The position numbers were made by a program, and so were the translations under genes. Source: Gammaproteobacteria bacterium (GTDB lineage Bacteria > Pseudomonadota > Gammaproteobacteria > Pseudomonadales > CAMLJR01). Taken from it: a stretch of DNA of 38,244 nucleotides. The stretch lies in the NCBI GenBank assembly GCA_050485745.1, contig JBJHBY010000004.1, forward strand, positions 1 through 38,244. Direction: 5' to 3'. Each line of letters starts with the position of its first letter. Within the stretch, counting starts at the first letter, position 1. Positions 5,334-8,771 of this stretch are shown here, in pieces. Under the pieces are notes generated by a model. That model saw only the letters and a program-made list of their open reading frames with translations. It was not told where the DNA came from and did no database searches.

Positions 5334-6686
5334 TTATCCCGCTGGCACCGTCAGGATCGCCGTGGCGATGGAGAAGTAGATCAGGATGCCGCAGATATCC
5401 GCGATCGAGGTGATCAGCGGGGCACTGGCGGTGGCCGGATCGAACTTCATTCGGGTGAGCACGAAGGGCAGGAGCATGCCGATCATGCTGCCGACCACCA
5501 CCACCAGCACCATGGCGAGTGACACCACCATCGCAACCTCGGTACCGCCACGCCACAGGCCCAGGCCCCATACCGCCGCCCCCATGGTCAGGCCGAGGCC
5601 GGTGGCCACGCCAAGCTCCTTGCCCCAGAGCTTGAGCCAGTCGCGCGTTTCCACGTCGCCGGTGGCCAGGGCGCGCACCATCAGCGTTGCCGCCTGGGAA
5701 CCGGCGTTGCCGCCGGAGTCGACGATCAGTGGCAGGAAGAAAACCAAAGCGATGACGGCCTCGATGGTCTCCTCAAAATAGGCAATGCCGGCGCCGCCGA
5801 AGATGTTCATGAACACCAGCAATACCAGCCAGCCCACGCGCTTGCGATACAGCAACGAGGGCCGGGCGTCGCGCAGGCTCAGGTTGATGGCCTCCATACC
5901 ACCCAGCTTGTGGAAGTCCTCGGTGTTCTCTTCTTCCACCACATCCATCACGTCGTCGACGGTGACTACACCCAGAAGCATGCCCTGACGGTCGACGACC
6001 GGCAGCGCAGTGATGTCGTAGTGCTGGATCAGGTCCACCGCCTCGGTACGGTCCTCCCCCGCCTGCACGCTGACTACTGTGCCGGAAAGCAGGCTTTCGA
6101 CGGTCTCCTCGGGAGCCAGCATCACCAGGCGCTTGAGGCTGACCGTGCCCAGCAGATGGCCGCGGTGGTCGCACACGTACAGGGTGTTGATGTTTTCTTC
6201 CGGTTCCCCGTGACGGCGCACATGGGCCAGGGCCTGGGCCAGGGTCCATTCCGGGCGCACCGCGACGAAGCGTGTAGTCATCAGGCGGCCGACACTGTTC
6301 TCGGGATAACCGAGCAGTTTCAGCGCCATCTTCATATCGTTGGTGGAGAGCAGGCGCAGCAGTTTTTCCAGTTGTTCCTGATCGACCGATTCCAGCAAGG
6401 CAGTGCGGTCATCGGGCAACAGCTCGGCAAGCAGTGCACGACCACTGGCGTCGTCCAGGGCGTCGAGCAGATCCGACTGGTTGGCCAGGTCCAGATAGGC
6501 AAACACATCGGAACGCTCGTCCTCGGGCAGCTGCCGGAAGGCCTGCTGCAAGTGCTCCAGCTCGAGCTCGTCAAGGACGCTGGCAATGTCCTGCACGTGC
6601 ATCCGGGCATAGTGCTCCGGCAGTTGTTCCCAGGCCTCGCGCTGGATCAGGTCGAGCAACAGTTGGGTTTCGGGCTTCATTTCCAT
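5334..6686 (-). CDS. mgtE: magnesium transporter MgtE
   Basis: N domain, two CBS domains (GRLMTT; LPVVD...LLGVVTVDD), 5 TM helices with GGNAGSQ and DPATASAPLITSIAD (conserved Asp); start moved to ATG 6686 after an AGGGGG RBS. Confidence 0.95.
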   Translation of the reverse strand: MEMKPETQLLLDLIQREAWEQLPEHYARMHVQDIASVLDELELEHLQQAFRQLPEDERSDVFAYLDLANQSDLLDALDDASGRALLAELLPDDRTALLESVDQEQLEKLLRLLSTNDMKMALKLLGYPENSVGRLMTTRFVAVRPEWTLAQALAHVRRHGEPEENINTLYVCDHRGHLLGTVSLKRLVMLAPEETVESLLSGTVVSVQAGEDRTEAVDLIQHYDITALPVVDRQGMLLGVVTVDDVMDVVEEENTEDFHKLGGMEAINLSLRDARPSLLYRKRVGWLVLLVFMNIFGGAGIAYFEETIEAVIALVFFLPLIVDSGGNAGSQAATLMVRALATGDVETRDWLKLWGKELGVATGLGLTMGAAVWGLGLWRGGTEVAMVVSLAMVLVVVVGSMIGMLLPFVLTRMKFDPATASAPLITSIADICGILIYFSIATAILTVPAG

Positions 6687-6777
6687 GGGTCTTTCCCCCT
6701 TTTTCGGACATGCGCGGCCCGCCACGTTAGTCTGTCATGCGCTGATGACAGATCATCGGTGGCCGGCACAGGGGTGA

Positions 6778-7467
6778 TCAGAAGGCGACAGCGAATCCGA
6801 GGGTCGCGGCATTGTCGCTGTGGCTGCTGAAGCGGCGTTGCCAGGCAACGTCGATCAGCAGGGCGTCGAAGGCGAAGCGCAGGCCGGCCTGTACGCGGGT
6901 GCTGCCGCGGTGATCGCCCCAGGTCTCCGCCACCAGGTGCAGCGGCCCCTCGACGGCGTATTCCAGCGCGGCACCCCAGATCACGGCGTTACGATCGTCC
7001 CTGGCCCAGGCCCAGCCCAGGTTGTAGTGGCTGGTGAGGCGCTCACTGTGGGGAATGCTCAGGGGCACATAGAGCTCGACGTCGTCGACGCGCTTGCTGT
7101 CGTCATTCCAGATGGCCGCTGCGGCCAGGCCCATGCCGAAACCGTGATCATCCTGGGTGCGCCAAAGGGTCTTGCCTTCCAGGGCAACCTCGGTATGGGT
7201 GTCGCCACCCTCCTGGACGCGGCTCAGCCCCAGGCCCAGGTCGAACTGCCCGGTGGGATTGCAGGTGGGGAGTACCGTGAACTCGTTATTGTTGCCGTTG
7301 AAGTGGGTGTACCAGGTTTCCACCTCACAACGGCCGGCGTCGACCAGCGCGGCGTCGTCGACGGCAAAGTGGCCGCCCAGTGCGAGGGCCTGGCTGCTGC
7401 CGATGAGCAGGCCGGTGGCCAGCCAGGGCTTGAGGGTCTGGTGCTTGCGAATCAGTGTATACAGCAT
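6778..7467 (-). CDS. exported protein, probable outer-membrane beta-barrel
   Basis: signal peptide (LLIGSSQALA), alternating hydrophobic/aromatic beta-strand pattern, C-terminal Phe (LGFAVAF); GGAG RBS; 91 nt upstream of mgtE on the same strand. Confidence 0.7.
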   Translation of the reverse strand: MLYTLIRKHQTLKPWLATGLLIGSSQALALGGHFAVDDAALVDAGRCEVETWYTHFNGNNNEFTVLPTCNPTGQFDLGLGLSRVQEGGDTHTEVALEGKTLWRTQDDHGFGMGLAAAAIWNDDSKRVDDVELYVPLSIPHSERLTSHYNLGWAWARDDRNAVIWGAALEYAVEGPLHLVAETWGDHRGSTRVQAGLRFAFDALLIDVAWQRRFSSHSDNAATLGFAVAF

Positions 7468-7694
7468 GGTGCTTGCTCCGTGTCTTGAATGGTTTCTCGC
7501 GCCATCGCTTCGCAGCGGGGCGCGGGTTCAAAAAACGGATACCTGATCGGAGGTGCCAGCATTCATCATCGCAAATGCCTGAGCATGATGCGGCTCGAAG
7601 AGACTGGCTGTTGAGGTTCCGGTTGGGCATCCCGCATTCGTCACGGGAGCCGACCGCTGGCTGATCGCGATTGATCAGCGGAGGAACGGAGGGC

Positions 7695-7751
7695 TTACCG
7701 CGCGAAGGCCGTGCTGACAGTGTTGGTCAGGCAACAACTGCAGGGTTCCAT
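7695..7751 (-). CDS. putative 18-aa leader peptide MEPCSCCLTNTVSTAFAR (MgtL-like position)
   Basis: GGAGGA RBS 9 nt before ATG, just downstream of a near-consensus promoter and about 230 nt upstream of the barrel-mgtE genes; MEP start and F-x-R end recall MgtL. Confidence 0.6.
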   Translation of the reverse strand: MEPCSCCLTNTVSTAFAR

Positions 7752-7785
7752 CGAGGGTGGTCCTCCATTGCTTGAGTCGGCGGCG

Positions 7786-7813
7786 ATTTTACGTACACGG
7801 GTCAGCATGTCAA
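7786..7813 (-). promoter_or_regulatory. sigma70 promoter for leader / barrel / mgtE unit
   Basis: minus strand TTGACA (7813-7808), 16-nt spacer, TAAAAT (7791-7786). Confidence 0.7.
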
Positions 7814-7925
7814 CCTTTTGGGTCTTTGTCGTGGTCGGGCATTGCAGTGCATGCTTGCAGCGGTGACGATCGCGCTGCGTTGACTTCAATTCCATTAATT
7901 CCATTCCTGTATGCGGGAGAACACC

Positions 7926-8771
7926 ATGTCTGCGAACAGACCTGTTGCCCTGATCACCGGCGCCAGCCGCGGCATCGGTGCCAATATCGCCCTGCACCTG
8001 GCGCACGCCGGTTATGACCTGGCGTTGAGCGCACGCACCGTCAGTGACGGTGAGGTGCGGGATCACTCGCCCGCTGCGAGCCGACAACTGCTGACGGCAC
8101 TGCCCGGCAGCCTCGCGGCCACCGCGGAGGCGGCCCGTGCCGCCGGTGCGAAGGTGCTCGTGGTGGCGGCGGATCTGTGTGATCGCGAGGCCCTGCGCGC
8201 CGTAGTGGAGCGCACGCTCGCCGAACTGGGTGCGGTCGATGTGCTGGTCAACAACGGTCAGTTCATTGGCCCCGGCCATATGGAGCCGTTTCTGGATGCT
8301 CCCTTCAATGGTATCGAGGGGCATATCCAGGGCAATTTGCTGGCACCCCTGTGGCTTTCTCACCTGGTGCTGCCCGGTATGGTCGCCCGCGGTGGTGGTG
8401 TGGTCATCAATATCAGCTCCGCCGCCGGCGAGTGGGACCCGCCGGCGCCGCCCGGGCAGGGTGGCTGGGGCCTCGCCTACGGCGTGTCGAAGGCCGGTAT
8501 GAACCGCATTGCCGGCTGCCTGCACGCCGAACTCAAGGGGCAGGGTGTCACCGCGCTCAATGTGCACCCGGGCTTCGTGGCGGTGGAGCGCATGCGCCAG
8601 GACGAGGCCGTGCTGGGGGTGGATGCCAGCGTTGGTGCACCCCCGGACGTCGTGGGCGCCTGTGTCGCCTGGCTGCTGGCGGACCCGGAGCGGCTGGCGC
8701 GCTTTGCCGGCAAGACGGTGGAGGCCCAGGATGTGTGCCGCAACGAGGGGCTGTTGCCGGGTTGGGGATGA
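7926..8771 (+). CDS. short-chain dehydrogenase/reductase (SDR)
   Basis: TGASRGIG Rossmann motif, DVLVNN, NISS, catalytic YGVSK; ATG 7926 after GGGAG. Confidence 0.9.
   Translation: MSANRPVALITGASRGIGANIALHLAHAGYDLALSARTVSDGEVRDHSPAASRQLLTALPGSLAATAEAARAAGAKVLVVAADLCDREALRAVVERTLAELGAVDVLVNNGQFIGPGHMEPFLDAPFNGIEGHIQGNLLAPLWLSHLVLPGMVARGGGVVINISSAAGEWDPPAPPGQGGWGLAYGVSKAGMNRIAGCLHAELKGQGVTALNVHPGFVAVERMRQDEAVLGVDASVGAPPDVVGACVAWLLADPERLARFAGKTVEAQDVCRNEGLLPGWG

Follow-up and report, generated by a model that had tools for sequence, protein, structure and literature searches.

A putative leader-peptide attenuator before a porin-mgtE operon, and its relatives upstream of Mg2+-transport genes in Gammaproteobacteria

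A stretch of 38,244 nucleotides (nt) from a Gammaproteobacteria bacterium (contig JBJHBY010000004.1, assembly GCA_050485745.1) carries on its minus strand an operon for an outer-membrane barrel protein and the Mg2+ channel MgtE, and the question raised by this locus is what the leader before the first gene might do. The whole stretch is called the window here, and the same word labels its leader as a family member. An earlier note on this DNA had described a promoter TTGACA-16-TAAAAT, a GGAGGA ribosome-binding site and an 18-codon open reading frame (ORF), all of which were found on the minus strand at the positions below, and had proposed an undescribed translation-coupled attenuator for Mg2+ uptake, a proposal that the comparative evidence supports. 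The region is probably a leader-peptide transcription attenuator that heads the porin-mgtE operon, within a conserved family of leaders located before Mg2+-transport genes. Its 5' part comprises the following features.

7786..7813, minus strand: sigma-70-type promoter TTGACA-16-TAAAAT (-35 box at 7813-7808, -10 box at 7791-7786)
7761..7769, minus strand: region 1, AAUGGAGGA, ribosome-binding site of the leader ORF and 5' arm of the predicted helix P1
7695..7751, minus strand: leader ORF of 18 codons, MEPCSCCLTNTVSTAFAR followed by TAA, with codons 1-6 as the conserved core (NUG GAR/GAY .. .. AGU UGY)

A family of leaders upstream of Mg2+-transport genes

The promoter agreed with the consensus at 11 of 12 positions and was the single promoter-like site observed between 7300 and 8000, where shuffled sequences gave an expected number of 0.2; transcription is predicted to start about 28 nt (25-30 nt) 5' of the leader ORF. 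Pairs of -35 and -10 boxes of the sigma-70 type were also legible in the sequences of family members, at a conserved distance, and the -10 box aligned in five members with TA.A.T invariant. The GGAGGA ribosome site (7766-7761, minus strand) lies 9 nt ahead of the ATG at 7751, and a purine-rich site occupies the equivalent place in the eight members of one alignment and in the four MESSSC members.

A scan with MgtE peptides over one genome per species yielded 39 loci, and a metagenome scan with an eight-sequence alignment of the barrel protein yielded 61 loci. Reading of the upstream DNA revealed a matching short frame in L012 (with its near-duplicate L051), L053, L013 and L022. A pattern taken from the first members detected L130 and L133 in genome G404, with no match of the reversed-pattern control, and L140 in G490, a relative of L022. 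L024 was recognised by eye, and a second pattern detected three relatives of it (G629, G631 and G632), being positive in 4 of the 55 genomes of that order with no control matches. In all, 11 members were found beyond the window, and the family, with the pattern NTG-GA..C....-AGTTGY, comprises 12 distinct related leaders from nine genomes and two metagenome contigs. L142 and L024 denote one and the same place, and L013, L130 and L133 all lie in G404. The leader peptides are as follows.

Window: MEPCSCCLTNTVSTAFAR
L012: MEPSSCHCCNTMKRPFGRLA
L053: MEPGSCNYCSEHGTRPRAR
L013: MEPGSCHLNSNVISFGR
L022 (G405): MDSSSCRRSNARQQDAVRAQVDR
L140: MDSSSCRRQFARQPTAVRAAG
L130: MDSSSCRCQSNVERTLLAR
L133: MDSSSCSCRSNHMLIPFVR
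L142 (G580): MESSSCTLTDNSQR
L146 (G629): MESSSCTLTDYALR
L147 (G631) and L148 (G632): MESSSCTLTDTTQR

The conserved peptide core is Met-(Glu/Asp)-x-x-Ser-Cys only. Cys6 is invariant, and a second or third cysteine occurs within three residues in 5 of the 12 peptides, the other seven having one cysteine only. Richness in cysteine, which the earlier note had taken as a defining trait, is therefore a trait of the window/L012 lineage.

All 12 leaders were located upstream of Mg2+-transport genes, in mgtE, porin-mgtE, mgtE-porin or mgtC operons. The leader is followed by the barrel gene and then mgtE in the window, L012 and L053, directly by mgtE in L022, L140, L142, L146, L147 and L148, and by an ORF of 82 amino acids (aa) and mgtE in L013. 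The order in L130 is leader, mgtE and a barrel homologue (28% identity, E = 8e-22), and in L133 it is leader, mgtC, a gene for an MgtE_N/CBS protein, GDT1 and PAP2. By eye, the 82-aa ORF of L013 (2737-2985) resembles an isolated MgtE N-terminal domain. The L130 and L133 leaders stand 11 kilobases (kb) apart on one contig (L139, G404:C10:31000-50500), with L013 on another, and the three leader copies of G404 look like a small Mg2+ regulon under one leader type.

On the sequence comparisons made here, the leader family is conserved and undescribed and occurs in a few, mostly soda-lake, Gammaproteobacteria. Its carriers include the isolates Alkalilimnicola ehrlichii AK92 (G404) and Natronospirillum operosum G-116, which make the predictions given below directly testable. 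Pattern searches were positive in 1 of 75 genomes of the order of G404 after four chance matches had been dropped (reversed control 1), in 2 of 38 genomes of the family of G405 (reversed control 3) and in 1 of 61 genomes of the family of G406. A class sample of 401 genomes gave two matching genomes against five control matches, and the sole true member among them was the window's own genome. These counts are lower bounds, because strict patterns were used and the first pattern missed L024. When one mismatch was allowed to the strict pattern, 17 of 401 genomes of the order matched, about as many as with the reversed control, and among these 17 only the match in the window's own genome lay next to a barrel gene or mgtE. 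A sequence-only covariance model (R1) recovered, among 87 sources, just its eight training loci and L051; it missed L024 and is thus insensitive. Among 61 related genomes, the barrel gene was present only in the one that holds the window, and an mgtE match in 4 of the 15 genomes of the window's family, with 48% identity for the best non-self match. The leader DNA is single-copy in the window's genome, which also holds two further mgtE-like genes (L007 and L010, on contigs C267 and C345; 46% and 33% identity).

Six pattern matches were set aside as chance matches: L121, which sits within an amidohydrolase-like ORF, L135, L136 and L138, which lie in coding DNA, L137, within a CRISPR array, and L149 (about position 1500 of G942:C28). 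The last was found with a loose pattern and reads MDSRSC... over 30 codons (ATG-GAT-AGC-CGC-AGT-TGC), in an intergenic position before a serC-like gene; it was judged a chance match because its CGGTAAG does not lie in frame, Mg genes are absent from its surroundings and the control gave five matches, and the N-terminal likeness remains.

Coding signature, predicted helices and strain variation

The start of the short frame is always NTG and never CTG (ATG in one leader, GTG in two and TTG in nine). Frame 0 has a length of 14-23 codons in all 12 leaders, and of 14 codons in the four MESSSC members, whereas the other two frames range from 2 to 95 codons in the eight members analysed. Eight members have an ORF that ends in CGG-TAA, and in these AGTTGY stands 21 (four times), 30, 33, 36 or 36 nt from CGG-TAA, every value being a multiple of 3. 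At the level of amino acids, Ser10 is encoded by TCA in L130 and by AGC in its paralogue L133, Asn11 is present in six of the eight members analysed, and the ORFs of L147 and L148 differ by a single synonymous change (ACC/ACT). The short frame is a conserved and, to judge from these signatures, apparently translated leader ORF.

The 323-nt leader of the window folded with a predicted energy of -117.9 kcal/mol (z = -2.97), and 1 of 100 shuffled sequences folded as well. In the minimum-energy fold, the post-stop stretch GCCCUCCGUUCCUCC (7694-7680, minus strand) pairs with AAUGGAGG (7769-7762), in agreement with the earlier note, which had seen that this stretch could pair with the ribosome site of the leader itself. 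Hairpins are present at 7679-7660 and 7656-7620, and U6 at 7535-7530. Prediction and covariation, together with the strain variants given below, point to mutually exclusive helices, 1:2 (P1), 2:3, 3:4 (P2) and 4:5 (terminator base), among the elements listed here.

7685..7706, minus strand: region 2, the ORF 3' end, stop codon and post-stop CCUCCGUU, predicted 3' arm of P1 or 5' arm of helix 2:3
7660..7679, minus strand: hairpin GCUGAUC-AAUCGC-GAUCAGC at the tip of helix 2:3, found among the 12 members in the window leader only
7620..7656, minus strand: predicted antiterminator P2, a helix of regions 3 and 4 (-18.1 kcal/mol)
7626..7632, minus strand: core of region 4, GGAUGCC, 5' arm of the terminator-base helix in the minimum-energy fold of the 268-nt transcript
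7530..7543, minus strand: region 5, GGUAUCC (7543-7537), then G and U6 (7535-7530), predicted 3' arm of the terminator helix and U tract
7478..7538, minus strand: 3' hairpin of the U tract with sequence just ahead of the GGAG of the barrel gene (7479-7476), predicted in the full-length leader only

Region 3, which extends to 7658-7637, has an alternative pairing with region 2. RNAalifold analysis of an eight-member alignment revealed that the stop region GCGG.UAAGC pairs with GCUU.CCGC, the 5' arm of the next hairpin, and a helix-by-helix duplex search showed helix 2:3 clearly in 9 of the 12 members and less so in L053, L022 and L140; P2 follows in the same members as 2:3. Compensatory changes link regions 2, 3 and 4, which read AAGC/GCUU/AAGC in L130 and L133 and AAGG/CCUU/AA(C)GG in L142, L147 and L148, while in L146 CAG/CUG is changed to UUG/CAG with pairing kept. 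P2 also covaries between L022 (CUCACCU/AGGUGAG) and L140 (CUCACUU/AAGUGAG). Helix 4:5 of the window joins GGAUGCC (7632-7626) with GGUAUCC (7543-7537), just 5' of GUUUUUU, and it covaries among the window, L012 and L053 as GGAU/AUCC, GGAA/UUCC and GGAG/CUCC, the fourth pair being U-A, A-U and G-C, respectively. The local hairpin of greatest stability in L012 and in L053 takes the 3' arm of P2 as its 5' arm and ends just ahead of a U-rich tract (-30.1 and -29.2 kcal/mol). P1 was predicted in the window, L012, L013, L130 and L133 and was ambiguous in L053. In most members C exceeds G after the stop codon (per 60 nt, 24 C and 13 G in the window, and 24 and 10 in L022).

Folding of partial and constrained transcripts was consistent with an exchange between these helices. 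A window transcript cut at the U tract (268 nt) adopted 2:3 and 4:5 (-91.5 kcal/mol), and the full 323-nt leader adopted the fold with P1 and P2. With a ribosome placed on the start and codons 1-6, both the window and L012 were predicted to form 2:3 and 4:5, and with a ribosome at the stop codon both were predicted to form P2, the terminator being absent.

Strain variation over positions 7300-7950 was examined with contigs of three runs (X2-X4), which share about 95% identity with the window. Fourteen variant sites fell in 7519-7671 and 13 in 7789-7856, and none in 7672-7788, an invariant 117 nt that takes in the end of the -10 box together with the leader's ribosome site, ORF and post-stop stretch. 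Ten of the 13 variants in 7555-7671 were at positions unpaired in both predicted states, which make up 29% of that interval (binomial P = 0.0005), and the remaining three, located in stems, preserve pairing (G-U to A-U, A-U to G-U and C-G to U-G). The variants at 7671 and 7668 lie in the loop of the 7660-7679 hairpin, and those at 7624 and 7625 in the internal loop of P2. The 3' hairpin at 7478-7538 is weakly supported, since the variant at 7519 breaks one predicted pair. Further upstream, a divergent short-chain dehydrogenase gene starts at 7926 in the window; the X2 and X3 contigs part from the window at 7887, and the corresponding upstream piece of X4 lies elsewhere in its contig. The module therefore starts about 75 nt upstream of the -35 box, the dehydrogenase gene is no fixed neighbour, and promoter, leader, barrel gene and mgtE behave as a module.

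Proposed attenuation and competing explanations

In the proposed mechanism, the ribosome site together with the start codon would make up region 1, and the 3' end of the ORF, with its stop codon and the post-stop CCUCC, region 2; regions 3 and 4 would be the arms of P2, and region 5 would precede the U tract. When region 2 is sequestered in P1 or covered by a ribosome positioned at the stop codon, P2 would form, 4:5 would be blocked and the operon would be transcribed. A ribosome on the start codon or the first six codons would leave region 2 free, and 2:3 and then 4:5 would form, with a stop of transcription at the U tract. By analogy with mgtL and corL, high Mg2+ would turn the operon off through efficient loading of, or early elongation along, the leader ORF, and low Mg2+, with the leader poorly translated, would leave it on. 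Eleven of the 12 members have a weak start codon, the ribosome site is structured, and the invariant Ser-Cys codons AGU UGY, which are minor codons here, would hold a ribosome early in the ORF. Mg2+ is suggested as the signal by the gene association only.

A number of observations weigh against this mechanism or against parts of it. The sign of regulation is uncertain, because the predicted logic makes early stalling repressive, the opposite of the stalling reported for MgtL. At the level of the ORF, the synonymous sites of codons 2-6 are nearly invariant, with Ser5 as AGU and Cys6 as UGY in all 12 members, whereas AGT makes up 11% of serine codons and TGT 24% of cysteine codons in the long ORFs of the window. 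A 1-nt insertion or deletion (indel) between L022 and L140 shifts the last codons, alters the C-terminal residues and moves the stop by 4 nt, and these two observations together imply that conservation is partly at the RNA level rather than at that of the peptide. Constraints at the peptide and RNA levels probably both act. As to the helices, L022 and L140 lacked a predicted P1, their start region pairing instead with the 3' end of the ORF, and the duplex energies of P1 and 2:3 were mostly no better than those of shuffled sequences (for 2:3, z ranged from +0.5 to -3.4; P1 outdid 95% of shuffles in two of eight members only). As to the terminator, the consensus terminator scan gave no site at the leader, which makes the imperfect hairpin with U6 described in the earlier note non-canonical, the 4:5 helix of the window has only 7 base pairs, closing an approximately 80-nt domain, and the L053 terminator forms in all three constrained states. 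A hairpin with a U tract was seen in only five of the eight members examined, and automated searches did not agree on a partner for region 4; termination may thus be Rho-dependent in some members.

The same conservation at synonymous sites, together with the covariation of the helices, is what an RNA-only switch would predict, that is, a metal-sensing riboswitch or a leader bound by a protein or small RNA, in which the open frame is a by-product. Codon 2 itself, as GGAAC or GGAC(U), covaries with a partner GUUC(C/G) or (A)GUCC, the L022/L140 indel changes the peptide tail while the nucleotides are kept, and another RNA motif before the mgtE of Thioalkalivibrio is a riboswitch candidate, as given in the available part of PMC11109978. 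Such a switch would not account for a start that is NTG with N never C, for a purine-rich site 6-12 nt upstream in all members that were read, for the uniform length of frame 0 next to variable lengths of the other frames, for indels in multiples of three, for the TCA/AGC switch of serine between paralogues, or for the fixed place of the stop codon within helix 2:3, and we regard it as an unlikely explanation. A frame open by chance in an ordinary structured 5' untranslated region is far less plausible still and is already contradicted: short open frames are common in GC-rich DNA and the individual helix energies mostly do not differ significantly from those of shuffles, but 12 related loci in several genera share frame, start type and context, and the strain contigs show no variation over 117 nt between variable flanks.

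Two further explanations keep the peptide and change its role. The earlier note had considered that the leader might sense the supply of cysteine or a thiophilic metal (Zn, Co, Ni or Cu) through its cysteines, and the invariant Cys6 and the additional cysteines within three residues in 5 of the 12 peptides would suit this idea, as would the sensing of copper by a nascent-chain CXXC in CruR, which the available part of PMC9426467 describes. Comparative support for it is nevertheless small, since only Cys6 is invariant and seven peptides have a single cysteine; CruR has about 140 residues or more, against chains of 14-23 residues here, and every associated operon relates to Mg2+ (mgtE, mgtC, GDT1), with no genes for cysteine or transition metals. 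Given the length of the ribosome tunnel, a nascent chain of 14-23 residues would remain inside the ribosome, and sensing of this kind is judged improbable. Slightly less probable again is a free small peptide encoded first in the operon with a function of its own, for example in regulating or chaperoning the transporter. MgtS, MgtR and MgtU are small proteins that act in this way on MgtA, MgtC and MgtB, respectively, and the conservation of amino acids noted above (Ser10 as TCA or AGC; Asn11 in six of eight) would fit such a product, but the peptides are hydrophilic and of only 14-23 residues, their C-terminal half varies, with a frame shift between L022 and L140, and 170-650 nt of structured RNA separate them from the next gene.

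The leader-peptide attenuator accordingly remains the reading we prefer, and it allows a more speculative extension, which we put forward with little confidence. The invariant N-terminal Met-(Glu/Asp)-x-x-Ser-Cys, in every case with AGU-UGY, could be a novel type of Mg2+-sensitive signal that is hard to translate, acting at about six residues and replacing the proline/acidic sensor of MgtL, and the shared ends ATGGAACC...TTC..CGGTAAGCC could reflect a common ancient gammaproteobacterial Mg2+ leader with mgtL that moved between mgtA, mgtE and mgtC while its sensing codons were swapped.

Known Mg2+ leaders and the genes of the operon

Searches against Rfam revealed no match to M-box, RF01056 or any other Mg RNA family at E<=10 in 6500-8500 of the window, in line with the earlier note, which had seen no M-box, and none to M-box or Magnesium-II at E<=0.1 in 18 related loci that include all 11 other members. 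The gathering score of RF01056 is 40 bits, and E. coli mgtL, as positive control, scored 125.8 bits; the family sequence model in turn gave no match at E. coli mgtL. Literature searches, limited in coverage, returned no description of the present leader.

The closest parallel in design is MgtL (RF01056, Enterobacteriaceae), whose ORF, in the 5' leader of a gene for an Mg2+ importer, has 17 codons, comparable to the 14-23 codons of the present ORFs; in both, the ORF lies within alternative stem-loops and the stop codon inside a stem. According to the available part of PMC11552253, the translation of mgtL and corL, as upstream ORFs (uORFs) in E. coli and Salmonella, is inversely related to the expression of mgtA and corA, via Rho, and regulation through the efficiency of uORF translation is what is proposed here as well. 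E. coli mgtL reads ATGGAACCT...TTCCGGTAAGCCCG and has in common with the window's ORF an initial ATGGAACC and a terminal TTC..CGGTAAGCCC, which is a lead for possible common descent and not a demonstration of it. The core differs: MgtL is Pro-rich and acidic (MEPDPTP in E. coli), whereas the present family has x-Ser-Cys, with Pro3 in 4 of 12 members, no Pro at position 5 or 7 in any of the 12 and one acidic residue, at position 2. MgtL heads the P-type ATPase gene mgtA and the present family heads mgtE or mgtC, and Rho-only termination is reported for mgtA, whereas a U-tract terminator is predicted in some members here. The likeness to MgtL drawn by the earlier note thus holds for the design and for both ends of the frame and does not extend to an RF01056 match; the leader resembles MgtL in design and is not a member of the Rfam-defined MgtL RNA family.

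The leader of corA (corL, E. coli and Salmonella) is similar in having a short uORF before an Mg2+ channel gene, with a UUG start, two exclusive RNA structures and uORF translation inverse to channel expression, all as given in the accessible text of PMC11552253. It differs in its transporter family and taxa and in its Rho-dependent termination, and it is likened here by description and not by sequence. The M-box (ykoK) leader controls mgtE in Firmicutes through a leader with a terminator, like that proposed here, but it has no leader ORF and consists of a large aptamer that binds metal. The trp, his and ilvB attenuators have a leader ORF, a chain of exclusive helices and a fold set by the position of the ribosome, as proposed for the present leader, and a U-tract terminator, as predicted for some of its members. 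They have a run of cognate codons, which the present ORF lacks, and they control biosynthesis rather than transporters. With one helix layer more here (1:2, 2:3, 3:4 and 4:5), the predicted logic is inverted relative to those classical attenuators.

A motif that also lies upstream of mgtE in soda-lake Gammaproteobacteria is SRC-65-1, termed the "mgtE motif", which the available part of PMC11109978 describes as a riboswitch candidate found only in Thioalkalivibrio. Four members of the present family (G580, G629, G631 and G632) share one order, and L024, at the same place as L142, is labelled Thioalkalivibrio sp. SRC-65-1 has helices P1-P4 with the ribosome site and AUG of the main ORF in P4, and that part of the source mentions no uORF; the comparison is by description only. 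The Thioalkalivibrio mgtE loci L027, L029 and L036 have a different leader without the present ORF. If SRC-65-1 is the MESSSC subgroup, the family is partly in print as an RNA motif, without the uORF reading or the wider distribution.

Mg2+ leaders based on uORFs have been described for the enterobacterial mgtA, corA and mgtCBR. The leader ORF with alternative helices before mgtE or mgtC appears to be an undescribed family among the uORF leaders of Mg2+ transporters, and with it leader-peptide control would be extended to mgtE, and to mgtC, of Gammaproteobacteria beyond the enterobacteria. Its putative sensing core of Ser-Cys, set beside the prolines of MgtL, would offer a natural comparison for how ribosomes read Mg2+.

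The structural genes that follow the leader in the window are listed here.

6778..7467, minus strand: first structural gene, for a 229-aa outer-membrane beta-barrel of 12 strands, with a fold of the KdgM/NanC porin type and an N terminus resembling a signal peptide
5334..6725, minus strand: mgtE, Mg2+ channel of 463 aa (Pfam MgtE_N, CBS and MgtE; TIGR00400)

The mgtE product scored 386 bits against TIGR00400 (cut-off 233). The barrel gene carries the label PF27733, with 773 representative clusters at E<=0.001, and sequence searches of Pfam and NCBIfam gave no match for the barrel protein. Its AlphaFold2 model (mean predicted confidence, pLDDT, 88.8) has 12 strands, and Foldseek comparison gave TMq values of 0.67 with VhGalP, 0.63 with NanC and 0.66 with KdgM at 8-9% identity; in view of the negative sequence searches, the likeness to KdgM/NanC is one of fold only. 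A KdgM/NanC-like barrel gene adjoins mgtE repeatedly and in either order, in the window, L012 (2296-2976), L053, L014, L016/L056, L054, L055 and L139 (4025-4777, minus strand), and about 55 of the 61 metagenome barrel loci have no mgtE within the flank. The recurrent pairing of porin and MgtE suggests a dedicated outer-membrane route for Mg2+, and the barrel may be a dedicated outer-membrane Mg2+ channel. Free Mg2+ is scarce in carbonate-rich alkaline waters, where such a route may matter.

Other short ORFs were seen before barrel-mgtE pairs. L014 (about 1993-2064), from a Halomonadaceae metagenome-assembled genome (MAG), has a short ORF MEDPGSPLSSSAGVCQMVLAISL with an MgtL-like acidic/proline start behind a strong promoter and ribosome site, and two Wenzhouxiangella-type loci, L016 (about 1823-1858; L056 is identical) and L055 (about 2186-2236), have a short ORF MSRH..NGG.., likewise with a strong promoter and ribosome site. 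The leaders of L014, L016/L056 and L055 were not accepted as members of the family, being undetected by the family model and having different short ORFs, and uORF control of the barrel-mgtE clade seems to exist in several unrelated versions. Near the mgtE of L036, a Thioalkalivibrio MAG locus, a yybP-ykoY Mn2+ riboswitch was detected at 5583-5708 (minus strand) with 51.7 bits, the gathering score being 45.

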